NCBI GenBank assembly: GCA_964016885.1
Contig: OZ024752.1
Coordinates: 29,078,001 to 29,142,000, forward strand
DNA length: 64,000 nt
Direction of reading: 5' to 3'
From: Eledone cirrhosa
Lineage: Eukaryota
Shown: positions 4,200 through 55,800 of the stretch, one piece after another
Position numbering within the stretch: the stretch's first letter is position 1
How the letters are laid out: every line of letters begins with the position of its first letter
Notes under the pieces: model-generated
What the model saw: the letters and a program-made list of their open reading frames with translations, nothing else
Told to the model about the DNA's origin: nothing
The model's database searches: none
Translations under genes and position numbers: made by a program

Positions 4200-5272
4200 A
4201 CATTTACAGTGTGTGCTGGGTGCTTTTTGCCATATCTCCTACACGACCACTTTACAGAGTGGGTTGGGTGCTTTTTGTTGTGACACCTACACGACCACTT
4301 TACAGAGTGGGTTGGGTGCTTTTTGCCGTATCTCCTACACGACCACTTTACAGAGTGGGTTGGGTGCTTTTTGCCATATCTCCTACACGACCACTTTACA
4401 GAGTGGGTTGGGTGCTTTTTGTTGTGACACCTACACGACCACTTTACAGAGTGGGTTGGGTGCTTTTTGCCGTATCTCCTACACGACCACTTTACAGAGT
4501 GGGTTGGGTGCTTTTTGCCATATCTCCTACACGACCACTTTACAGAGTGGGTTGGGTGCTTTTTGTTGTGACACCTACACGACCACTTTACAGAGTGGGT
4601 TGGGTGCTTTTTGTTGTGACACCTACACGACCACTTTACAGTGTGGGTTGGGTGCTTTTTGTTGTGACACCTACACGACCACTTTACAGAGTGGGTTGGG
4701 TGCTTTTTGTTGTGACACCTACACGACCACTTTACAGTGTGTGCTGGGTGCTTTTTGCCATATCTCCTACACGACCACTTTACAGAGTGGGTTGGGTGCT
4801 TTTTGTTGTGACACCTACACAACCACTTTACAGAGTGGGTTGGGTGCTTTTTGCCGTATCTCCTACACGACCACTTTACAGAGTGGGTTGGGTGCTTTTT
4901 GTTGTGACACCTACACGACTACTTTACAGTGTGTGCTGGGTGCTTTTTGCCATATCTCCTACACGACCACTTTACAGAGTGGGTTGGGTGCTTTTTGTTG
5001 TGACACCTACACGACCACTTTACAGAGTGGGTTGGGTGCTTTTTGCCGTATCTCCTACATAACCATTTTACAGAGTGGGTTGGGTGCTTTTTGTTGTGAC
5101 ACCTACACGACTACTTTACAGTGTGTGCTGGGTGCTTTTTTGCCATATCTCCTACACGACCACTTTACAGAGTGGGTTGGGTGCTTTTTGTTGTGACACC
5201 TACACGACCACTTTACAGAGTGGGTTGGGTGCTTTTTGCCGTATCTCCTACATAACCATTTTACAGTGTGGG
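4200..5272. repeat. minisatellite, 45 bp unit, about 24 copies, two interleaved variants
   Basis: ctacacgaccactttacagagtgggttgggtgctttttg(ccatatctc/ttgtgacac); unit also found inside RTE 3' UTR/SINE copies. Confidence 0.95.
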
Positions 5273-5599
5273 CTGATATTTACTGTGCTGGTATAGAGTT
5301 GTGAAAATAAGTATTATGTACAAGTAATACATAGAAAAGTGTAATTATCTCTAAAAATAATTAATTAACAACACAGAATCTTGTTCATTCAACTAAAACT
5401 TTTCCTGTGATACAAAGATAATCAATTTGCTATTGGAGCAGAGTTGGCTGCCTGCAGGTGCAAGCCCCATGAGGTGTAGTGGCTGTTCCACCCTGTCTCC
5501 TTCGCTGTCCTCTGGAGCTATGTATTCTCGCTCCATCCTGTCAGCTGGGATCAAACCACTTTAAGTTATGTTCCAAACATTACTGAGATTATGATAATA

Positions 5600-5741
5600 T
5601 TGGTGGATTGGAAGTATCGGTAGAGTTATGACCCTTTACGTTTGAGTTCAAATCCTGCCGAGGTTAGCTTTGCCTTTCAATAAAACACCAGTAATGCACT
5701 GGGGGGTAATTGCTGGCCTTGTGCCAAAAGTAGAAACAATA
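5600..5741 (+). mobile_element. tRNA-derived SINE family A (Meta/MESC-like core)
   Basis: B-box gagttcaaatcc followed by tttgcctttc...accagtaatgcactggg; about 15 copies in window. Confidence 0.75.
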
Positions 5742-5977
5742 TTATTGATCTCATATTGGCACAAAGTATGTTGGCGAGACACAGTTGATTAAAAGGATTC
5801 AATATTAGGTGTTATTAATTTTTAACTTAGGCACAAGGAAACAATATCCCTGGTCTATTATACAACATTAAGTATAGGCTCATTACTCTCAGACACATAT
5901 TTATGGAAACAGCTCTTCTCCATCTGAACACAGTCCTCCATGCTGATAAGACTCTTCCACCTTCAGCTCTCTTTAAC

Positions 5978-6194
5978 CCTTTAGCATTTACATTACTCTA
6001 TATATACTATTATATTTTCACGATAAAGACTTTACCTTGCATAATTATCTCACATATCAAATCTATGAGATTTTGATATTATTTATTTTGAGAACCATAA
6101 CTTGACATCAATATGAGTGGCCAGTTATGGCTGGTTTGAACAGAAAGAAGTGAGATAATTCTGGCCGGATACGGCCTGTTTAAATGCTAAAGAG
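5978..6194. mobile_element. TTAA-flanked piggyBac-type MITE
   Basis: ttaa-CCCTTTAGCATTTA ... TAAATGCTAAAGAG-ttac; about 9 related copies. Confidence 0.75.
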
Positions 6195-6509
6195 TTACGT
6201 ACAGTTTATCAACATCACCTTTCTTATGAAACATACTGTAGGTAAACGGAAAAAATGAAACGAAATTTCATTTCCCACTCTTAGTACGGCTGTTACTTAA
6301 ATATAAGTATGTACACGTACATACATATATGTATACAGACGTACAGTAGTATGTATATATATATACATACATGCACACATATATATATGTACGTATGGAT
6401 TCACCGAACATTTATTATAATGTTCGGTGTGTTTGTAAACAAACATCCCGTATTAAGCTGTACTGTCTAGAAACCATCGTTGCTCGTTTGTTCAACACTG
6501 ACAAAGGAA

Positions 6510-6550
6510 CGCTGTACTAGTTTCAAGCTTATTAGCTATCATCAGCAACG
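6510..6550 (-). ncRNA. minimal type I hammerhead ribozyme motif
   Basis: Minus strand: cgttg CTGATGA tagc taataa gctt GAAA ctag TA cagcg. Confidence 0.7.
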
Positions 6551-6641
6551 TATACCTTCTTGCCAGATTGTTGAACATATATACTTACCTTAATATGCAT
6601 AAGGTAAGTATATACGTTCAACAATCTGGCAGGAAGGTATA

Positions 6642-6682
6642 CGTTGCTGACGATAGCTAATAAGCTTGAAACTAGTACAGCG
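6642..6682 (+). ncRNA. minimal type I hammerhead ribozyme motif
   Basis: cgttg CTGACGA tagc taataa gctt GAAA ctag TA cagcg; helix I cgttg/cagcg, palindromic helix III ACTAGT, predicted GUA cleavage after 6677. Confidence 0.7.
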
Positions 6683-6999
6683 TTCCTTTGTCAGTGTTGA
6701 ACAAACGAGCAACGATGGTTGCTAGACACTGTACGGCTTAATACGGGATGTTTGTTTACAAACACACCGAGCATTATAATAAATGTTCGGTGAATCCATA
6801 CGTACATATATATATGTGTGCATGAATGTATATATATATATACATACTACTGTACGTCTGTATACATATATGTATGTACGTGTACATACTTATATACTGT
6901 AGGTAGTTGTTGATTCCTTTGTCTTTCTACCCAGTTCCAACTGTCTGATAGGTATTGAAGATTTCTCAAGAGTGTCAGTTACAAAGCTTAGCTAGATGT

Positions 7000-7270
7000 G
7001 ATTCTATCACAGCTGAACACATTGCTGTCCTTTCTCATTAAACTCTGCCAAATCCAATGCTGTGCAGGGGTGTTCCAGCAGGGGGCATATCAGGAAGTGC
7101 TGCGTAGTCTGTGGTTCGATGTTGCAGTCACACACAATGTCCCACCCTTTAAATATCCCCATTTTGTCAGATTAGCTTTTGCACGACCAGCACCAGATCT
7201 TAATCTGTTGAGGCATTTCCACACTGCATAATTATTTGTATCTGCTCTGGGGGCAGTGGCTCGAAGTACC
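7000..7270 (-). mobile_element. non-LTR retrotransposon C-terminal fragment
   Basis: WKCLNRLRSGAGRAKANLTKWGY followed by a decayed Cys motif, typical of LINE ORF2 C-termini. Confidence 0.55.
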
Positions 7271-7271
7271 A

Positions 7272-7545
7272 ATAGGAAAAATAGAACAGAGGTGAAATTA
7301 GCAGCTAAATTACATGAGGCGATTAGAGTGGTATTGCAACCAATGTGCTAGCTGTGAGAATGGCACTTGACTATTTCTTCAAAGTGAAACACAAAGGTTG
7401 CATTGTCAGAACCAAGGCGCATGCTTTAAGAAATAAGGAAACAAAAGCTATTCGATAGGCCCAAGTGACAGAGGTGCAACGCAGCAACAAAGCATGACAG
7501 CGCATGACAAATCATGACAGCTGTGTACTGCTCGATTCTAAGTAG
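7272..7545 (+). mobile_element. old fragment of Tx1/L1-type LINE ORF2
   Basis: Colinear nucleotide similarity to about 54195-54460 (e.g. gcacttgactatttcttcaaagtgaaacacaaaggttgc vs gcactggaccagttcttcgatgcgaaacacgaaggctgc). Confidence 0.65.
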
Positions 7546-7724
7546 TATCCCAATTTATACCAACTCTAACTTTGCCGGAATCCTGCACAATATATCAAGC
7601 CTCTGAGATCAGGGACAAATTTGAGGCCAATCAAGTTTTCATCTAGCAACTGATTGCTAGATTTTTTGAAAAAAAACAAAAAAACACAAAATAAATTATT
7701 ATTATTATTATAGATTGGCATTAT

Positions 7725-18271: not shown

Positions 18272-21200
18272 GTTTAACGTCCATCTTCCATGCTTGCATG
18301 TAGTACAATAAAGCAATGCAGATATCGGATAAGTAGCACTCTACAGTTTGTAGGACTGGAGTATAAATAATATAAGATCAAAAGATGGTTAAAAGAGTTC
18401 CATGTATTTTATTATGCGCATTTCAAAAACAAATATCATCATGAGATGACATTTGCGTTTTCGTCAGATAAAATAGGAATACATGATATGAAGGTTAAAA
18501 AACACTTGTGAATAGTGGAGTTTTAAATCAACATATGAAAAGTAATTTAAGATTGATGTATGATATTGGGGAAAAAAAAGTGAGGGGGGGGGTGGAAAGG
18601 GTGAAAAAGAGGAGGAGATGAGAGTAAAGAATGGTGGGGGAGGAGTATAATAAGGAAGGAGGAGAGATGGGTGATAGAAAGAGAGAGATAGCCTTTATAA
18701 CTGAGAAAAAATATATATTGTTTCACAGAGAGGTTAAAAAGCCGTTGGAAGATAATATATAATTTAAAAGAATTTGAAAATAAAAAGTTGATGAAGAGAA
18801 AAAAAAGTTAAGAATAATATTAAATTAAGGTTTGTATGCTGCCAATCCACTGCCCCAATAATAATCACAAATATCAAACGGAATGTTTTTCTTTATTAGA
18901 TACTAGCAGTAAAGCCCGGCGTTGCTTGGGGTCGCTCAGTAGCTGTGTTAAAGTTACAATGTTAAGTTTCTTTCTTGGCTTAAAAACTGTAGTGTCTACT
19001 GTGCAGACTTGCATGTGGTGTTTTTGATTAATATTCCCTCAACCAACAATATGCCTTATGAAGTTAAGAAAACATAACGATAACCCCAATGGTATAACAA
19101 AAGAGGATGCTGGGGATAGAAACTGCACTGGTTATTTATTAACAAAGATCGAAAATGTAAACACTGCAACGCAGAGAAAAACATTAGCGTAACCAAATTA
19201 TCAGTTATGTCTGTCTGCACGCCTATATCACCTCTCTGCACGACTGTCTGTCTGCACGCCTATATCACCTCTCTGCACGACTGTCTGTCTGCACGCCTAT
19301 ATCACCTCTCTGCACGACTGTCTGTCTGCACGCGTATATCACCTCTCTGCACGACTGTCTGTCTGCACGACTGTCTGTCTGCACGCCTAACGACGAAATA
19401 TTTGCTTGTTTTACGTAGTCTTTAAATAGACTTGTTTTCAAGTAAAAATATTGTTTTAAAATGCTTTTAAATGGAAATGAAGCAAAACGGAAGCTTAGTG
19501 TTCGGACTGATGAATTTTGCAGGTCAATATTTTGCTGGCTCGACAACTGTTAATGTCATTTTAAACGCTGAGAAAGCCAGCGTAATTTTTTACGTAAGAC
19601 GCTCAATGTAAACAGAACAAAGGGAAATAACTGATAACTTACGCTCAAAAATCGATACATTATATTCGATTTCGTCACATGGGGCGGGTCAATTTGAAAT
19701 ATTTTTTTTCCGATGTCTTCGCTAGGGCTCAATGTACAAGTATAACAATTTCGGTGCAATTCCGTGAGAGATTCTAAGAGGAGATCATCATCATCATCAT
19801 CATCAACGTTTAACGTCCGTGTTCCACGCTTGCATGGGTTTGGACGGGGGTAGTCCCACTTGAGGCAAGAGTGATTGTCTTGCTCGCATAGGACTGTCTG
19901 GCAGGTTTTCTACAGTTGGATGCCCTTCCTAACACCAACCACATTTACAGTGTGGGTCTGGGAGGTTTTTACCGTGTTGCCTACACGGCCACATTACAGC
20001 GTGGACTGTGTGTTTTTTTGTCGTGACACCTACACGATCTCATTTGTTTCGGCCTCGATGGCACGGCACCAACATAACTTTACATAGAACGGGGTGGTGT
20101 GGATGGGGTGGGGGTGGTGGTGGTGGGACGGGGTGTATTTTGTTAGAGATGCCTACTGGCTGGAGTAGGTTTTACTATATATTTAGGTAAGGCGGGTCTT
20201 CTCTGTTACTGAGTACCGCCAAAGGTCTCGGTCCAGTGACATTGTCTTGGAGAGGTGTAAGTGTGTGATGTCGGAGTTTATCAGCTCGTCCCAGGTTTTT
20301 CTAGGTCTGCCTATTCCGTGACTACCGTCTATCTTTATTGCCCTGCACTTTGTTATACAGCTATCGACTTTCATGCGCATCACGTGTCCATACCAACGTA
20401 GCCTTCTCTCGAGTAAACAACATCTGATCCCTCTTATCTCTAATTTTTTCCTTAGTTCGTTTATGCTTTGCCGTTCACGTATATTACTGTTACACATCCA
20501 GCGGAGCATGCAAGCTTCGTTCCTCTCTAGTCTGCGTATATCCTCTGCACACAATGCCCAGGTCTCACTGCCATGCAGCATTGCTGTTCGTATGCAGGCA
20601 TCGTACAACCTGCCTTTCATAAAAATCGATAGACAGACAGACAACCACAGTTTTATATATATAGATGAACTTTGAGCAACTGATTATAAAATTAACTGTT
20701 TTCCAAAGGAGCAAAAAGAGAAGCTAACCTAATTCATGGTTTTATCAGTGTTTTTACTGATTAGATCAACTTCCACTTTAGTATGATTAATAAGTCTACT
20801 TTAAGTTTAATAACAAAATGAAATTGTAATATTTGAACATAATTTATGTGTTTTACAAAGCTAGAAGATCAAATTTATTCTAATGATTAACTTGTTAACA
20901 ATTTGTTTTTGTTCGTACATTTATGTTATGTAAAAGATAAAATTATAATTTTTTGACAAAAATCATTAATTACTGACAAAAATGATTAATTTTCCGTCAA
21001 AAATCATAAATTTTCCGACTAAAATTACTTATTTTCCAACAAAAATCACTAATTTTCCAACAAAAATAATTTTCTGACAAAAATTACTAAATTTTCTAAC
21101 CCTTTTTTTTTGGGGGGGGGGGGGTTACCTCCATGCACCCCCAACAATACACTACTGGTCAGTCAGAAGGTACAAAAATATTTCATAAAATTTATGTTTT

Positions 21201-27200: not shown

Positions 27201-30200
27201 TTGTAGTAGATGGTTTCCAGTCCAGAACAGACTGCAACTACAAATAAAAAAATTGTTAGTTTGCTTTGTAACAATAGCATATTCAAGTTTTCGGATAAAT
27301 CAATTTACTTTAACTTTGACCTCATTTCAATGGGACCCTTGAGCTTCATGGAGTCTAGCTAACTCTTTGACGTCAGGCTGGATATTTGTAAGATGTAGCC
27401 AGAGATCCACATGTAATTACATTGTAGCAGTTGCGAGCCTTACTGTGAAGTCTGGAAACAGCACCAAACCTCCCCGCGACTAAGTATGAGCTTGGAAAAG
27501 GCAGAGCAAATCTCTTAGCCTCTGCATGTAGGAGTGGAAATCGACGCTGCATATCTTCTTGCATCCAAAAAAGGGGTTCACCTATTTTGGGAAATCTAAT
27601 TTTGATCATGTCATGTGCTTGAAGTTCAATGAATTCTTCCTGAAGGGATCTGCTATCCACATTTGGATGTCCATCAGCAAAAGGTCGACAAACCATTCTC
27701 TCATGTTGTCTTGTAGCGCACGGAGGTGAGCGGTATAAATTTGGAGTTGGCCATCGCTTGCAATGTTTTAAACATTGGCGACACTAGGAAAATTATAGAA
27801 TTCCCGTCAACAAAGATTACTTTCGATGACATTCAATTTGGCCAGGAATGTTTTCACAGCATTCCTTGCTTTAAGCAAGGTGGTCTTCTTCCCCTGCAAA
27901 GCCATAATAACGCTCAGCGAGGTAGGCGCAGTCTTGCCTCACATCGAGGGTTTTCTTATACAGTTCTGTGTTGCGCCCTCGAAGAAACTCAATGATAGAG
28001 TCAAACAGTTCAAAGAAGTCAGTAAGGCACTTGCCCTTTGAAAGCCACCTCACTTCAGTATGAAGGAGCAACTTGATGAATTCTTTGTCATTATCTTGGC
28101 ACAGTTGCCGGAAAATTCGTTCATTGGGGGAATGGAGTTTGATAAAATTGAAGACATCAATGGCCATCTGCAAGGACTTGCTCAGTGGCTCGCTGAATTT
28201 CTTTGCAGCCAAGTGTTGTTGATGAATGACACTATGAACAGCAAATGCAGTTAGATTTTCTCTCTTCAGAAAAATGACGAAACCCTTATGTTAGCCGACC
28301 ATTGCTCTTGCGCGTCTGTACCACATGATACAATGTGTGTTGTATGTGGTCCTAGATGTATGTATTACCTGCCTGTGTATTGTATGTGGTCCTAGATGTA
28401 TGTATTACCTGCCTGTGTGTTGTATGTAGTCCTAGATGTATGTATTACCTGCTTATGTATTGCATGTCGTCCCAGCTGTATTTATTATCTGCTTGTGTGT
28501 TGTATGTGGTCCTAGATGTATGTATTATCTGATTATGTGTTGTATGTGGTCCTAAATGTGTGTGCTACCTGATTATGTGTTGTATGTGGTCTTAGATGTG
28601 TGTATTACCTGCTTATGTGTTGTATGTAGTCCTAGATGTGTGTGCTGCCCGCTACTGTGTTTTTTTTTTGTTTTTTTTTTGTAATATTATTTATACAATA
28701 GGAAATAAAATAGATCTACATAGTGTTAACTCGTTACAGTTGAGTCAAAAATTTCAGACATGAAATACATTGTTATCGGTGAAGGAAAGACAAGATTCTA
28801 ACTGGCTGCGCTCAAAGTGCCCTTGACTCAGTTGACTGTGGGTGTTTTCCATTTTTAGGATCTCAGTTACCAGTTAATGTCTAGATACGCCTGCTCACAG
28901 CTGCAGTCAGACCATAGTTATGCTGTCTGCATGCTCATTCAAATGCATTCACACTGACCGTTTCAGCGACATATAAAACTTACCAAAGTAAAGAGCCTTC
29001 CAGCGCTCTTCAAAGCTCCAAACTCCCCCCTGGAGTTCCCCCCCCCCCCCCCCCCCCCGGAGGTGCATATGCCCGCCGTTGAGAACCTTTGCTTTAGACA
29101 ACAGAGGCTTTTGTTTTCTCTATTTGCTTTTCTGTAGTTTTTCATCAAACATAAATATGAAATTTTGCTGAGGACCATTCTAACATACTACACAGCCTGT
29201 ATCACAGTCTGTCATACTGCCTCAACTACACATCACCAAGTCCTCATAGCAGCCAAAATTGAATCTTTTTGGCATACGATCTCACATTCTTTCTCATATC
29301 ATCCATGCTCACTTTAATTACATATATCTGAAAACAAAATATATTTGTTGGAGATTCAGTTCTAATTTTTCACATTTTCCATTTCTATTCCAATAAACTT
29401 GGATTTTGAATCACTTTTTTAACGGCACCATATTTTTAATTGAGTATTGATAGCTGTCATAGCATTTATATTACTCTATATTTACTATTATATTCTCATG
29501 GTAAAGGCTTTATCTCACATAATTACCTCACATAATATTGAATCTATGAGATTTTGATTTTATTTATTTTGAGAACAATACCTTAACATCAGTATGAGCA
29601 GCCGGTTACAGCTGGTTTGAAAAGAAAGGGGCGAGAGAATTCTTGCCAGATATGGCCAGTTTAAATGCTAAAGGGTTACAGTATGGCATTACACATTTCA
29701 GTAGAATTTGTTGTTTTAATTATTATGTAGTTGCAAATCTATTTGTTCTACTGTTTTATACTGAAATACCTCATCAAATATTAGTTTTAATTATCCAACC
29801 TTTACATATTGTTGGTTTTTACTAGATTCCACTCATCACTTTTAGAGATAGTACAATGACCAAAAGCATTAAAACATTTTCTTACTTTTAATTTCACACA
29901 GGTCTCTTTCCTCCTTCAAGTGGAACTGCTATTGTGAATGGCTATGATATCCGTAATGACATGAAAAATGTCCGGTCAAGTTTGGGTATATGTCCACAAC
30001 ATGATGTCTTATTTGAGATGTTAACAGTAGAAGAGCATTTACAGTTCTTTGCAAGGGTAAAAATGTTATTAGTTTATTCTATACAAAAATGATAAAACTA
30101 TGTTTATTATAATATTATAGGGAGGTGGATTGGCAGTATCAGTAGAGGGTCAGACGCCATGTTTTGGAGCATAGAGTTACGTCCCTTTGCGGTCTGAGTT

Positions 30201-30995
30201 CAAATCCTGCCGAGGTTAACTTTGCCTTTCATCCTTATGGGGTCGATAAAATAAAGTACCAGTAATGCACTGGGATAATTGCTGGCCTTGTGCCAAAAAG
30301 TAGAAACAATTATAATATTATAGCAATTTTCTCTCTAATTTAAGTGACACTCAGTGAACATTACTCATAAAGAATTAGTTTCAGTTATGAGTCTAATACC
30401 TATGTACAATGATTATATATATATATATATTGGTAAACGGAATAGAAAATGCTGACAAATTGTTCACAGTTGAAAAATGGTTTAATTAGGAATAAAAGAG
30501 TATTAGTGATTGTATGGGTTAGTATTCAGTTGTGGTTTTAAGTTTTTAAGTTTTTACCGGTTGCGCATTTCTAAATGCTTTTCAAAAATAATTTTGAGAT
30601 TTTAACATAAAAACAGTCTTGGCGCAAAATCAACTTTTTACATTCACATGACCTCTACCGACCAATCAAAATTGTTTTGACCACAAGAATTTTTGCAACA
30701 CAAAAATAACGCTGGAGCCACTTTTTTAACATAAAAACAGGTAGAATTCCCAAAACTAATCAGATCAGAGCAAACAGCACGGACACTCTATCTCAAAATT
30801 ATTTTTGAAAAGCATTTAGAAATGCGCAACCGGTAAAAACTTAAAAACTTAAAACCACAACTGAATACTAACCCATACAATCACTAATACTCTTTTATTC
30901 CTAATTAAACCATTTTTCAACTGTGAACAATTTGTCAGCATTTTCTATTCCGTTTACCAATATATAATAACTTGTGTGTTACACCTCTATTCTTT

Positions 30996-31046
<51 letters not shown>

Positions 31047-49800: not shown

Positions 49801-52800
49801 CTAATGGGGACACAGCCTCAGAGGTGGCACGATGGCATTGGCCAGCAAATCTTACTCTCCTTTTACATACAACAACATACATACAATAACAGATATGCAT
49901 GGGAGGCCGGCATATATTTCTTTCAAAGTCAGATGTCACCAGCTTATGTTCTGAATGCATCGAAGTAGACCAGTGTAGGTTCCATCAAGGCACTTTTGAT
50001 GTTTGGATGAAAGTGTCCATGTTTCACTTCCATATAGTAAAATTGGTTGAATTGTTCTTCATAATCCCTCTTAATATGCTTTTTTGCTTCAATAAAATCT
50101 CTTTATGCCTCAATAATATTTCATAATATTCTCTCAGAATAGCAAATATAAGAGAATATCTTGTACAACACTGATGAGTTTTACAAGCTGACTTTGGAAT
50201 GAAAATTGATTAGACAGAAACTGCTGAAGCCTATTGTGTTTTTATATATATTATATTATATTATATTATATTATATAGATATATACATATATAGATATAG
50301 AACATCTTATACAAAATCACTTAATGAAGCCTTCTAGCTTTAGGTTGCTTAACTAAGGCTCTATGCCTAAGGAAAAATATTTGTGAAGTTTTCTTGGTTT
50401 AGATTACTTTACTAGGATCTACCCATCAGTGATTTTGTATAAGATGTTCATTTATGTATATGCTTCTCTGAATTAGATATATTTTAGCAATCTTTTCATT
50501 GCGATGTTATGTATATTGGTGTCTGTATATATATATGTAGAAGTTATATTTAATTTGTTGGGATTCCACCAAGCTTAAAAGTTTATAACTGACATAAAGC
50601 ACTCAACAAATTACTGGAGTAAATAGTCAATATATTAATAAATGGAAACTATATTTAGAAAACCATAATTATTTTATTATATATATTTCAAGGACAACCA
50701 AGGCATTCTTGGTGCGCTTTCATCAGATAAAATACAACATTTGTTTTATAAATATTGACATAACCGTGGAAAAAACAACCTTGACAGTTGAAATAATTAT
50801 GGTTTTATAAATATAGTTTCCATTTCTTAATATATTGTATATATATATATATATATCGAGCCAGCCGACTGCTCCATATGCAAATAAGGCTTATCAGCCC
50901 ATGTACATAGGCATGAAAACTATCTTTTTGCCTACATTGGATTCCAGCAGGGGGAGGAAGTATTGTCTTGATAATGACCATAGTCAGAAACAGTAGGCTG
51001 TTGGCAGATTACCCAGTCCTGCTTCCGCTAGAATCCACCTAATGGCATTAGCCATCAGCTTCCAAAATTCTTAGCTAAAAGGCTTTCAAATGTTTATTCG
51101 TAAACATATTGTATATCGTTAGCTATACAAATACACACCTATCTATCTATCTCTCTTTTTGTCTGACGTGTGAAACATCGCCGGTAAGTTTTTTGTTAAT
51201 TTCTATGCAAAAAAACCGATCTAATTGTTTGGAAAAATACAACACTTTGTAGATTAACCTCGAAGCTGAATTGTCAGCTGGGTGGTAATCCCATTTTTCG
51301 CCCCTGTAGGGGCGAAAATTTTATTTTAAAAATTTGCTTTAAAATATCAGATTTTACAAAGTAAAAAACTTGAGCAACACTAGAACGCTGGAGAACGTTA
51401 ATAGAGAAAAGAGAGAGAAAGAGGCAGATATTAACGTTATATCTGCTTCTACTACTATGGACGTTGCCATAGATACAACTGTCACAAAAGAAAAAAATAT
51501 ATCAACATTTGAAAATTTTAAAATTTCTACCGCCGAAGCGGAGAAAAATGACAATAACACACAGGAAAACACAGCAAAAAAACCCATTGACATACACACA
51601 TGAAAAAGACATCAACAACTCTACAGATACATCTACACATAAAGTTTCCAACAACGATAACATCATCATCAACAACAACACCACACAAAAAAAGAAAATG
51701 TCTTTCGCTGACACAGTGAACAAGAAACAAGATTTTATAAATCTTGATATCTCCAACGCAAGAGATATGCTCCAGCAAGGGAGAAAATTTGTAACTTTCG
51801 AAGAAAGAGGTGGGTTTAGAATTAACTCACCCCTTGAAATAAAGGAAGACACAAACCGCCGATCAGTCACTTTTAGGACTGTGTCAAATTCGTCAAGAAA
51901 GCCAACATTTGTTAATCAAGCAGATATAGAAGATTCTTTCAAGGAAATTCTAGCAAATGTCGATTTTCTTCAGCGAGGAAAACAGTACGGAAGTGTTTCC
52001 GTACTGTTTAAAAGCGAGGCACTCGCCCCAAAAAACTCTGTGACACCAATAGTGTCAAAAGCATACACCTTTTTCCCTACATACATGGGGAAAAGGACAC
52101 AAAAAATAAAAATAAAAAACATACCTCCAAGCATTAACATCTGGTGGATCTTGGCTGGCTTCGTAGAGCCAGAAACAGACATAATACTTTCGATACGAAA
52201 ATCTATTCGACAAAGGTGGGCGGGCACAGATTTGGAGATTCTGTTGCAAATGAAACCGGAGAGAATCTCCAAAATACCCGAAAGAGTCGTTATTGATAAT
52301 AACAACAAAATAAACATTTCGGTAGAAGGACGAAAATTTCATTGCTTTCGCTGTGGTAGCACATCTCACCTAAAAGCCTCTTGTCCACAAACACACAACA
52401 ACAACATCATAAAAAAAACGCTATTACCAACACCAACACCAAAACAACCACCACCACCACAAGTACAGAGACAGACGAAACAAGCAACCACACCAAAGCA
52501 AACAGACACTCAACCAACAACAACAGAAAAAACAGAGACAACACCCCTGAAGAACACATCCCCACTCCATCCCACTCCATCAAACACTACCACAAACACA
52601 CATACCAAAACACCACCACCACCACACAACATACCCTTACCCCACACACCTGACGATGATTATTCATCGACGGATGAAGCTGCTTCTCCTTCTTTAAGTG
52701 AAGAAGAGGGAGAACCGCGGAAATCTAAAAAACAAAAAAAGAGACACCACAAAACCCCCAAAACTCCAATCACCAACACCAACACACAACCACAGACACA

Positions 52801-55800
52801 AACAACAACACAAACAACACCACAGTCAAACATCCCCCTATCAGCAAAACCAGCACCAACACCACCCCAAACACAAGCACCCACCATAAAAAGAAAACTC
52901 CCGGATGAACAACAAACTAAAACAACACAACAAAAACACAAACAACAATACGCATACATCAACACAAACAACAAGAGTTTGATGGAGGTCATCTCCCAAA
53001 ACCCCAAGGTGGAGACGGAGGGCAAAACTTTCGTCAAGGCAGAATCGTCTCCACACCTTAAACTTATAAGGGTTTCTATGGAAACCTATAAAGACCTAAA
53101 AATTAAATTTTCACAGGACGTGGGCAACCCCTGCCACAAACCCATCAACCGCATCCTGTTGAAAGGTTTCCCCACCCCACCCAACACCCCATCCGGCACC
53201 CAAATGGAGATTGAACAACCCGATCTCCAGGAAACGAAAAGGTAAGTGCACCTTTCGTCCTTTTTCTCCAACTTTTCTTCACCAACATGGCTGGTTTACG
53301 AGTTGGAACCGTGAATGTGCGTGGCCTAGGGATGCCCTGGAAACAGGGCCAACTTTTAAACGACCTTAGGTCACACAGTATGGATGTGATAGCCATCACC
53401 GAGTCCAGGATCCACAACAGGCAGCAACTAACCCCCATCTTCGACGACTTTGAGATCTACGCATCTCTCTGTCAGCCAGGAGGTGGAGGTGGAGTGGCTG
53501 TTATGTTTCGGAAGAACCTGGACGTCGGAGTACAGCAAGTACACTTGGACCCGGAGGGTAGACTGGTAGTCCTAGACGTGAACAGTATCGGAGGTGGAGC
53601 CTTCAGACTGGTGGTCGTTTATGCCCCGACCGGGCAATCGCAATCACGGCCAGACTTCTTTAAGCGTCTAGAGTCTTTTCTGGGAACGTCTCGCTCCTTA
53701 CTTTTAGTGGGGGACTGGAATGGTATCCTAGATGCACGATGGGACTATGTGGGAGCATGTCCCAGTAGAGCGGGGTGCAACAGCCTCAAAACTTTAATCG
53801 GCCAATTCCAACTGGCCGATAGGTATCGACTGGATTTCCCGACTGCACCACAGTGGACGTGGGTAAACCGCAGTGGGACATCTAGATCGTATTTAGATAG
53901 GTTCTTCATTAGAGAAAGGGACAAGGAGATGTTAAGCTGTCCACGAATGCACATGGTTGCCTATTCAGATCACAAGTTAGTCGTCTGCTTAGTCAACCGT
54001 GATAGAATACATAGACAGGGTCCCGGATACTGGAAGCTGAACGTGTCGTTGCCGGCACGTAAAGCTTACAGTGAACGGATAAGTAGACTAGTCAAGCAAC
54101 AGTTAATGGGAGCCATCGTCAACAATAGATGGTGGTACTCTCTCAAGAAAGCAATTAGAATAGAATCGATAGGGTATAGCAGAGAGTTAGCCTTAGAGAA
54201 AAACAGAATAGAAAGAGAACTAGTAGCCAAGGTAGAGGAGGCACTTAGAAGTGGCAACGCGGCTAGAGTGTTAGCGTTGAGAACGGCACTGGACCAGTTC
54301 TTCGATGCGAAACACGAAGGCTGCGTGGTCAGAAGCAAAACACGTGCTCTAGGAAATGAAGGAGCGAAAGCTGTCAGCTGGGCCCGAGTGGCGGAGGCAA
54401 AAAGTGGCAACAAGTCCACGATTCGGTCTTTGAAAGACCAAAACGGACACGTGCTACTTGACCCCAAGCAAATGTGCGCGGCCTTTCAGCGGCACTTTGC
54501 GCGACTGTTTGAGCAGAACGATGGTGAGCCGAACGGGGCAATGGACTTTAGTTCATACCTCGACGGCCTACCGCGTCTCTCGAACATGGACGCCGAGTTC
54601 TGCGAAAGACCGATCACAGACACTGAGATACGGGACGCTCTGGGCCGCTGCGGGAAACGCAAATCACCCGGTCTAGATGGTCTACCCTACGAATTTTACA
54701 TAGGCATGCCGGACTTGTTCTCTGGCGTCCTCGAAGCCGTCTACTGCAATTGGCAGCAGAACGGGAGAATTCCCAGTTCTGCAGGCAAGGGCGTAGTAAC
54801 GCTGATCAGGAAAGACGAGAACAAGGGGGACGAAATTAACAACTTCAGGCCCATAACTCTGCTCAACACAGAGTTAAAGATTTTGGCCAAGGTGCTAGCG
54901 ACGAGGTTGGCGCTTGTCGTCGAGAACCTGGTAGGGAAAGCGCAAATGTGTGCAATCCCGACCAGGTCCATACACGACAACCTCCACCTCATGCGATACA
55001 TCATAGAGAGGGTGGGTAGTAAACCCGGCTTCGGTGGGGCTCTGATCAACTTGGATCAGTCTAAGGCATTCGATAGGGTCGACCATCGATACTTGGAAGC
55101 GGTTCTCAAGGCGGCCGGTTTCGGTCCCGTGTTCAGAGGATGGATCGAGGCGATGCACACCAGCATCTGCTCACCAGCATCTGCTCGAGGGTCAAGGTGA
55201 ACGGCTACCTATCGGAGCCGTTCGCAATCACGCGTTCCATTCGACAGGGATGCCCTCTCTCCTCCATTCTGTATGTATTGACTCTAGAGCCACTACTGCG
55301 GAAATTGGAGCTGTTGCAGGGCATCCCCCTAGAACCGGGACTGCGCAAAGCGGCGTCGGCTTATGCCAACGACGTAACGGTAATGGTGTCGAGCACTTCG
55401 GAAATCGGGGTGATCGGCAACATACTGAAAGAATACGAAACGCTGACGGGAGCAAAACTAAACCCAGACAAGTCTGTCGGTTTGCAACCCAGTACATGGA
55501 GAGGCAAACCGATGACATCCGACAGCGTCGTTGGACGCTGGACGGACGGACCGGTGAAATTGCTCGGGGTCTGGTTCAGTCCAGACCTCCAGGTGGAGAA
55601 AAACTGGAACAAGGTCATGGCCAAGGTGTTTGCACTCACTCAGAAGTGGGCAGAGTGCAAACTGTCCTTGAAAGGTCGAGCGGAGGTGGCGAACATTTTT
55701 ATAGCGTCCGTCATCTACTACCGCTTGACTGTCGTGCCTTGTCCCCGTGAACACCTCGCCAAGATGGAACGCATGCTCTTCCAGTTTCTGTGGAAGAAGC

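Follow-up and report, generated by a model that had tools for sequence, protein, structure and literature searches.

The palindrome and its host gene

The window, by which we mean the whole 64,000-nucleotide stretch of Eledone cirrhosa DNA that was analysed, contains a palindrome at 6243-6895 that sits in an intron of a plus-strand ABCA3-like gene and is flanked by a 12-bp direct duplication. The host gene was identified from an N-terminal coding exon 4.4 kb upstream of the window, which matches ABCA3 residues 25-79 (E 3e-7), and from exons downstream of the palindrome that match ABCA proteins; the plus-strand ribozyme copy is sense to the ABCA transcript, as an earlier, sequence-only reading of this DNA had claimed. 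The palindromic arms, the unpaired extension on the left and the flanking 12-mer that it described were likewise recovered. The reverse-complement arms, 6301-6592 and 6600-6895, are 96.3% identical, with 7 substitutions and two indels of 2 nt each between them, and ATACTGTAGGTA is present twice, at 6233-6244 and 6894-6905. When pairs of ends were drawn at random within the window (±3 nt), a 12-mer match was obtained in 177 of 200,000 draws, and the flanking repeat is likely to be a target-site duplication. Both presumed nick positions carry TA or AT, and the target is not a microsatellite, which makes it an exception within the family described below.

Comparison with that family, a ~420-nt retrozyme repeat, adjusts the boundaries of the arms, pushing the left arm out to 6243 and the right arm in to 6590. 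The left arm (6243-6592, minus strand) corresponds to monomer positions 1-350, and its outer end is the “long” 3' end of the family. The right arm (6590-6895, plus strand) comprises the ~10 last nucleotides of one monomer followed by positions 1-292 of the next, and finishes at the “short” 3' end. Since the left arm maps onto monomer 1-350 and the right arm stops at 292, the unpaired “tail” (6243-6300, minus strand) is ordinary monomer sequence, namely the stretch from the short 3' end (~292-295) to the long one (~350-351); a small hairpin is predicted inside it. Each outer end of the element overlaps the duplication by 2 nt, the last two nucleotides of the left copy also fitting the long end and the first two of the right copy also fitting the short end. 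At the apex (6590-6602) the two 5'-truncated pieces meet over a 3-nt TTA microhomology (6590-6592), and the 7-nt loop at 6593-6599 belongs to the right arm.

A hammerhead core is present in each arm, as had been reported, and both are accompanied by GAAACTAGTA. In the left arm, the type I hammerhead (6509-6551, minus strand) has the core CTGATGA at 6545-6539 and a predicted cut between 6515 and 6514; its counterpart in the right arm (6641-6683, plus strand), also of type I, has CTGACGA at 6647-6653 and a predicted cut at 6677/6678. In the right arm, helix I is formed by 6641-6646 and 6678-6683 (6 bp, extending further), helix II begins with a U.U at 6654/6667 followed by 4 bp (6655-6658 with 6663-6666), and helix III, at 6671-6676, is 2-bp and palindromic. 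The Rfam scan of 5500-7700 gave 70 matches at E<=10, none of which reached its gathering score and none of which was to a hammerhead family; the below-threshold matches are to microRNA-hairpin models.

It is very improbable that the palindrome is a fold-back artefact of assembly. Among the alignments listed, no contig or read spans the apex or the element, and none joins 6244 to 6906 as an empty allele would; the sequences used are short repeat unitigs and reduced-representation reads, so they are uninformative on an artefact and on an empty allele alike. The 7 substitutions and 2 indels between the arms nevertheless argue against an artefact, as do the direct 12-mer flanks, an asymmetry that falls exactly at the two family ends, and a geometry common to 70 of the 148 insertions sampled.

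The ~420-nt retrozyme family and its hammerhead

One arm compared with the 3.0-Gb genome returned 2,531 first-look candidates, the 40 best being full-length matches of at least 97% identity. The same sequence recurs in head-to-tail arrays with a period of ~420 nt (loci L006, L007, L024, L033 and L049), with one hammerhead core per unit and as many as 8 in a single insertion. A 31-nt pattern for the exact ribozyme core has 24,157 matches genome-wide, against 0 for the reversed control, a count that takes in at least two subfamilies of ~420 and ~490 nt. The palindrome is probably inert, one of thousands of copies. A pattern for related ribozymes with another helix II gave 213 matches; the 100 listed are mostly point variants of the retrozyme family, and none of the 30 loci fetched with this pattern has a match to an ORF of Penelope-like elements (PLEs). 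At L121 (7722-9891), a sister subfamily of ~490 nt has an identical ribozyme and both 3' ends without the GT donor.

By the sequence definition given in the available text of PMC7229834, the ~420-nt repeat is a non-LTR retrozyme. Like the metazoan non-LTR retrozymes in that text and in the accessible part of a preprint (bioRxiv 10.64898/2026.07.22.740005), the family has a non-coding tandem unit of 150-450 nt with one type I hammerhead each, a GC content below 50% (37% in the monomer), a very high copy number, a duplication longer than 4 bp (12 bp here) and PLEs in the same genome. Unlike array retrozymes, the locus itself is an inverted pair of truncated units. Neither the element nor the monomer contains an ORF, the longest ATG-initiated frames in a natural trimer being 60 aa (sense) and 97 aa (antisense), and no PLE-ORF match was reported for the window.

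The ribozyme fold appears to be kept by selection: among 303 copies the third pair of helix I is paired in 299 and varies among subfamilies (U-G 174, G-U 76, A-U 41, U-A 5, C-G 3, mismatched 4), although these tallies are of copies and represent few independent events. The U-U at the base of helix II, which the sequence-only reading had called atypical, is in fact the rule, being found in 301 of 303 family copies and in the ribozyme of PLE family C; U10.1-U11.1 is, moreover, a natural variant with retained activity in the portion of PMC3088659 available. Similarly, the splice donor consensus AAG/GTAAGT at the apex is present in both directions (6601-6609 on the plus strand, mirrored at 6591-6583 on the minus strand), as claimed, but does not hold up as a conserved hallmark of an intron. 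The GT is found in only 28 of 101 ribozyme copies, with GA in 49 and 24 not scorable, and the donor is seen twice because the arms mirror each other. On this sequence evidence, GTAAGT may amount to no more than a cryptic splice site within the host intron.

In the available parts of PMC4209133 and PMC7229834, PLE-type and amphibian dimer hammerheads share with this ribozyme the type I fold, a short palindromic helix III and expected action as a dimer. The retrozyme ribozyme has neither the bulged base nor the G10.1-C11.1 pair that PMC4209133, so far as its text was accessible, gives as typical of metazoan PLE ribozymes, and its helix I is long and extended, unlike theirs. In the predicted fold of a single arm, helices I and II form and helix III does not; the palindromic helix III hexamer is computed to pair between two molecules at -6.8 kcal/mol.

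Transcribed in full, the palindrome is predicted to form a single hairpin of -501.7 kcal/mol, and folding thus backs the earlier claim that the sense ribozyme is masked once the full hairpin forms. Self-cleavage of this copy is unlikely in such a model, because helix III needs a second copy and because the antisense arm is made first in the ABCA pre-mRNA, so that a ~290-bp hairpin would bury the sense ribozyme; the copy is likely to be a dead end. Were it made as part of the ABCA transcript, this ~290-bp hairpin would probably be subject to A-to-I editing or to processing into small RNAs.

Other hammerhead-bearing repeats were observed. At L112, ~1.7 and 2.1 kb past an ORF stop, a ~459-nt tandem repeat has a hammerhead with U-U at the helix II base and a (TA)n end, features by which it classifies as a second retrozyme family. 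On the minus strand of the window, at ~18410-18475, there is another type I hammerhead-like motif, in which helix II is long and helix III palindromic; motifs resembling it in L116, L125 and L185 suggest a further ribozyme-bearing repeat family.

Two fixed 3' ends and the proposed route of insertion

The geometry of insertion was examined in 145 loci picked by position from the ribozyme motif lists, with overlapping duplicates removed, which together hold 148 insertions; the sample comprises copies with a ribozyme core only. The 3' ends fall at two fixed sites in 183 of 218 cases (103 long, 80 short and 35 other, in end-class windows up to 19 nt wide), and these sites, at monomer positions ~295 and ~351, are ~56 nt apart. 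Seventy of the 148 insertions are head-to-head, none is tail-to-tail, and 78 have one orientation only; three apparent tail-to-tail cases were spurious (TA)n self-matches and are gone from the final count. Where both ends of a head-to-head insertion could be assigned to the fixed sites (n=48, the remaining 22 having at least one unclassified end), 46 pair a long end with a short one, 2 are long with long and none is short with short. Among the ends scored by motif, 62 of the 79 long ones and 21 of the 37 short ones, or 83 of 116 together, are followed by a (TA)n tract, and at a few other insertion sites that are not pure TA there are candidate duplications of 9-15 bp. At the opposite side of the unit, only 10 of 155 5' ends lie within monomer 70-90, where the ribozyme cuts; as they do not pile up there, there is no sign that cleavage defines the template.

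The same geometry is found in the ORF-bearing PLEs of this genome. In family A, 15 of 21 insertions are head-to-head and all 12 that could be classified are long with short; in family C the corresponding figures are 8 of 24 and 6 of 7, and family F likewise has two 3' ends. The tails of families A, C and F measure ~44-65 nt, and that of the retrozyme 56 nt. The retrozyme shows what characterises a Penelope-like insertion, namely head-to-head 5'-truncated arms, a one-sided tail and AT-rich or (TA)n targets, and its end geometry indicates a link to PLEs. Thus one part of the Penelope-like interpretation offered by the sequence-only reading stands, since the inverted arms, tail and duplication form a geometry shared with ORF-bearing PLEs. 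Its other part, that the arms are inverted pseudo-LTRs, is not supported: they are pieces of a 420-nt retrozyme that forms tandem arrays, and not of an autonomous element identified here. A second head-to-head stump lies in the same ABCA gene at 30425-30998; it belongs to PLE family D, with its short end on the left, its long end on the right and TA tracts on both sides.

A long inverted repeat with a flanking duplication could also be read as a fold-back DNA transposon or MITE with long terminal inverted repeats, and the weak Rfam matches as a microRNA-like hairpin gene. This reading has a negligible probability and is already refuted by the family structure: inner boundaries vary among loci while the 3' ends are fixed, the ends are asymmetric, 78 of 148 insertions have a single orientation, the unit forms tandem arrays, and every Rfam match is below its gathering score.

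We regard the element as two 5'-truncated, head-to-head pieces of the ~420-nt retrozyme. A single insertion into the ABCA intron, carried out by the reverse transcriptase (RT)-endonuclease of a Neptune-type PLE, the kind with a zinc-finger linker, is its likely origin, and we give this reading a probability of roughly 85%. Priming of both target strands by a PLE RT is what we infer from the fixed ends, their orientation and the microhomologies. In this model, retrozyme arrays would give rise to multimeric or circular RNA, and the PLE protein would nick both strands of the target, 12 nt apart and beside TA. Each target 3' end would then pair with 2 nt of RNA and prime cDNA synthesis internally, one cDNA starting at the long site (~351) and its partner at the short site (~295). 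Having halted early, the two cDNAs would be joined at the TTA microhomology. Such two-strand priming would produce the outward 3' ends, the one-sided 56-nt tail and the 12-bp duplication. As this copy landed outside a microsatellite, the locus gives a clean read-out of the 12-nt stagger between the nicks, of the 2 nt over which the primers would pair and of the two start sites.

In the available text of PMC11167929, a purified PLE protein nicks AT-rich DNA on both strands and extends each of them; reverse transcription starts within its RNA, at two sites that mark the limits of the tail, and does not require ribozyme cleavage. As the start site did not differ between strands in vitro, that account, in the part accessible, does not explain the near-strict pairing of long with short ends seen here, a pairing that limits models for the use of the two start sites by a PLE. 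One tentative possibility, which we consider somewhat less likely than its opposite, is that a single PLE RT dimer uses two coupled sites of one RNA to prime both strands and is able to carry retrozyme RNA together with that of an autonomous PLE. Several Neptune-type families would then mobilise the retrozyme and, at times, co-insert it. Coupled priming of this kind would yield the 46 long and short pairs among 48.

Across 31 loci, two of which represent one insertion, arms within a locus differ at 137 of 5,312 columns (2.6%), as against 4.1% between loci, a similarity to be expected where both primers share a single RNA or a single array as template. At the palindrome itself, the arms differ in 7 of 190 scored columns, which equals the 3.8% background and puts them as far apart as random copies, and they have no minority allele in common at the scored difference columns. 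The minority alleles of the left arm were tried as a family haplotype and dropped, no other of the 146 segments carrying more than 3 of the 7.

These comparisons also bear on a reading that draws on the self-priming idea in the accessible part of PMC3846280, namely that the second arm arose when a single cDNA folded back and primed itself at a mini-hairpin of TTA and TAA at the apex. The apex is nearly symmetric and does contain a TTA-7 nt-TAA hairpin, symmetric junctions exist at a few loci (L015, L048, L159), and arms are closer within a locus (2.6%) than between loci (4.1%). Yet the same likeness is equally expected when both primers copy one RNA, and the arms here stand at background distance without a common minority allele. 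Most of the 44 junctions, moreover, have arms truncated at unrelated positions, and the orientation of the loop fits only the short-end cDNA, whose fold-back copy cannot extend 56 nt beyond the start of that cDNA to form the tail. We consider fold-back priming improbable, though less so than an assembly artefact.

Penelope-like elements in the same genome

The genome is rich in PLEs that combine RT and GIY-YIG domains, with 10,596 first-look candidates (PF01541) and Pfam confirmation of RVT_1 and GIY-YIG; the best 150 of the 10,596 were scored and 50 loci fetched. Motif matches number 13,904 genome-wide for family A and 5,901 for family C. Families A, B, C and E have a CX2-5CxxC linker ahead of the GIY-YIG domain and are putatively Neptune-type, an assignment made by this linker motif and not by a tree; in the text of PMC8557442 that was available, the linker is tied to Neptune and Nematis, and microsatellite targeting is offered as a hypothesis. 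Likely hammerheads with a U3-A8 core replacing C3-G8 were noted by eye in families A (3' UTR at L111/L112), D and E; this core variant is described in Schistosoma Cercyon in the accessible part of PMC4209133.

The sequence-only reading had proposed using one arm to recover an autonomous partner, and in this no partner sharing sequence was recovered among the six families sampled: BLAST of the monomer against the 50 GIY-YIG loci returned separate retrozyme insertions only, and no monomer sequence is shared with families A-F. The best local alignments of the tail to PLEs had p values of 0.004-0.9 over 21 tests, which is not significant after correction. The long end of the retrozyme resembles the short end of family A and that of family D in register, but not significantly, and a flank match to family B at L055 was dropped as low complexity. 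The refuting outcome named at the outset, an arm unlinked to PLE ORFs, accordingly holds for sequence, where nothing is common with the six sampled families, and does not hold for geometry, by which a link is indicated.

Homology to PLE ORFs is found at 11 of the 145 positional loci, three of which (L167, L185 and L379) were inspected base by base. In these, and in L121 from outside the 145, the PLE terminates in a 3' end of its own plus a TA tract. In L121, L167 and L185, family F sits on the same strand and upstream, and was considered as a partner; each time it ends in its own 3' UTR and a TA tract ~600 nt after the stop, and we regard its position as a coincidence of a very abundant family.

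Alternatively, an autonomous PLE outside our sample could have left the arms as stumps of its inverted pseudo-LTRs, with the arrays as its derivatives and this copy made from that element's own RNA. In favour of this are a geometry identical to the stumps of ORF-bearing families, including the family D stump in the window, the breadth of the search (150 of 10,596 GIY-YIG candidates scored, 50 loci fetched) and the homology of Xenopus retrozymes to pLTRs in the accessible part of bioRxiv 10.64898/2026.07.22.740005. However, upstream of the ribozyme the copies run into another monomer and not into an ORF, the right arm here spans a boundary between monomers, and the PLEs at the inspected loci end in their own 3' end and TA tract. 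We hold this origin to be unlikely, although it is the least improbable of the alternatives to insertion of retrozyme pieces by a PLE.

Junctions were tallied over 396 loci, a set that is not unbiased and in which some duplicates may remain. Head-to-head junctions join retrozyme to retrozyme in 112 cases and PLEs of the same family in 58. Retrozyme and PLE are in contact across a TA tract in 13 cases, which we read as independent insertions into one target. Four junctions are direct and head-to-head without a TA tract: L047 (2297-2611) with family C, L175 (4489-5171) with family D, and L180 (4559-5229) and L373 (1335-2145) with family A. At L373 a family A piece of ~85 nt lies between two retrozyme arms, the only direct tandem contact. 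At L256 the retrozyme is head-to-head with family E across ~80 nt of rearranged junction sequence, and this locus was left out of the four. The sequence of these four junctions hints at co-insertion of retrozyme and PLE. They may instead have arisen by later deletion between neighbouring insertions; they are few, and TA flanks hide any common duplication. If co-insertion by a shared dimer is correct, L047, L175, L180 and L373 would be direct footprints of PLE-driven mobilisation of a retrozyme with no sequence in common.

Retrozymes have been proposed (PMC7229834) and argued (bioRxiv 10.64898/2026.07.22.740005) to be non-autonomous derivatives of PLEs, and in the available portions of these papers the view that they ride PLE machinery is drawn from co-occurrence and pLTR homology, the preprint stating that the mechanism of mobilisation is still to be elucidated. 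Against its 21 Xenopus PLE matches, no homologous pLTR was found here among six families. The two fixed 3' ends, the head-to-head geometry and the (TA)n targeting found here are not described for retrozymes in the accessible text of either source. Our literature search on cephalopod or octopus hammerheads and on a head-to-head Penelope geometry of retrozymes, which had most subscription papers and the preprint supplements outside its reach, returned no description of this family or geometry. With PLE insertion geometry on a retrozyme and ORF-bearing families in the same genome, the claim becomes testable by the published in vitro priming assay. The view of retrozymes as PLE derivatives and the tail are already published; what is worth following is the coupled long and short priming and the mixed junctions.

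Inverted pLTR arms with a one-sided tail are a known PLE structure (PMC8557442, PMC3846280, as far as available). Like the EN+ PLEs in the accessible parts of PMC3846280, PMC8557442 and PMC11167929 (Poseidon PAc), the element has head-to-head 5'-truncated arms, a tail at one end, AT-rich or (TA)n targets in its family, a hammerhead upstream of the 3' ends and two start sites that bound the tail. The duplications cited for EN+ PLEs are on the scale of 8-10 bp, compared with 12 here, and the tails 30-40 bp, compared with 56 nt. Unlike them, so far as those texts go, it has no ORF, no conserved donor and no intron shown here, and its arms come from a tandem monomer; judged by sequence, it is not an autonomous EN+ PLE. 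A further parallel is offered by non-autonomous Chlamys elements such as MRC1 (PMC8557442, available part), PLE dependants with multicopy head-to-tail insertions. Chlamys dependants, however, generally share 3' sequence with an autonomous family, a match that the retrozyme here does not show with the six families, and most Chlamys lack the canonical hammerhead that it has. By these sequence tests the element is classed as a non-LTR retrozyme that would work like a non-autonomous PLE.

Several other repeats were observed around the insertion and in the ABCA introns. Just left of the insertion lies a very high-copy MITE-like element with 17-nt terminal inverted repeats (5974-6197), and a tandem repeat with a period of ~48 nt is found at 5006-5323. 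On the right, a LINE-like repeat 3' end on the minus strand, with no Pfam match (6967-~7350), starts at 6967, beyond the insertion target; other copies of it end in 73-nt tandem repeats, and we take it to be an RTE-like C-terminus. Further into the gene, the ABCA introns hold hAT-like transposase remnants at 27376-28290 (minus strand) and long LINE ORFs with an endonuclease-like start at 51473-55197 (plus strand), both named by eye.
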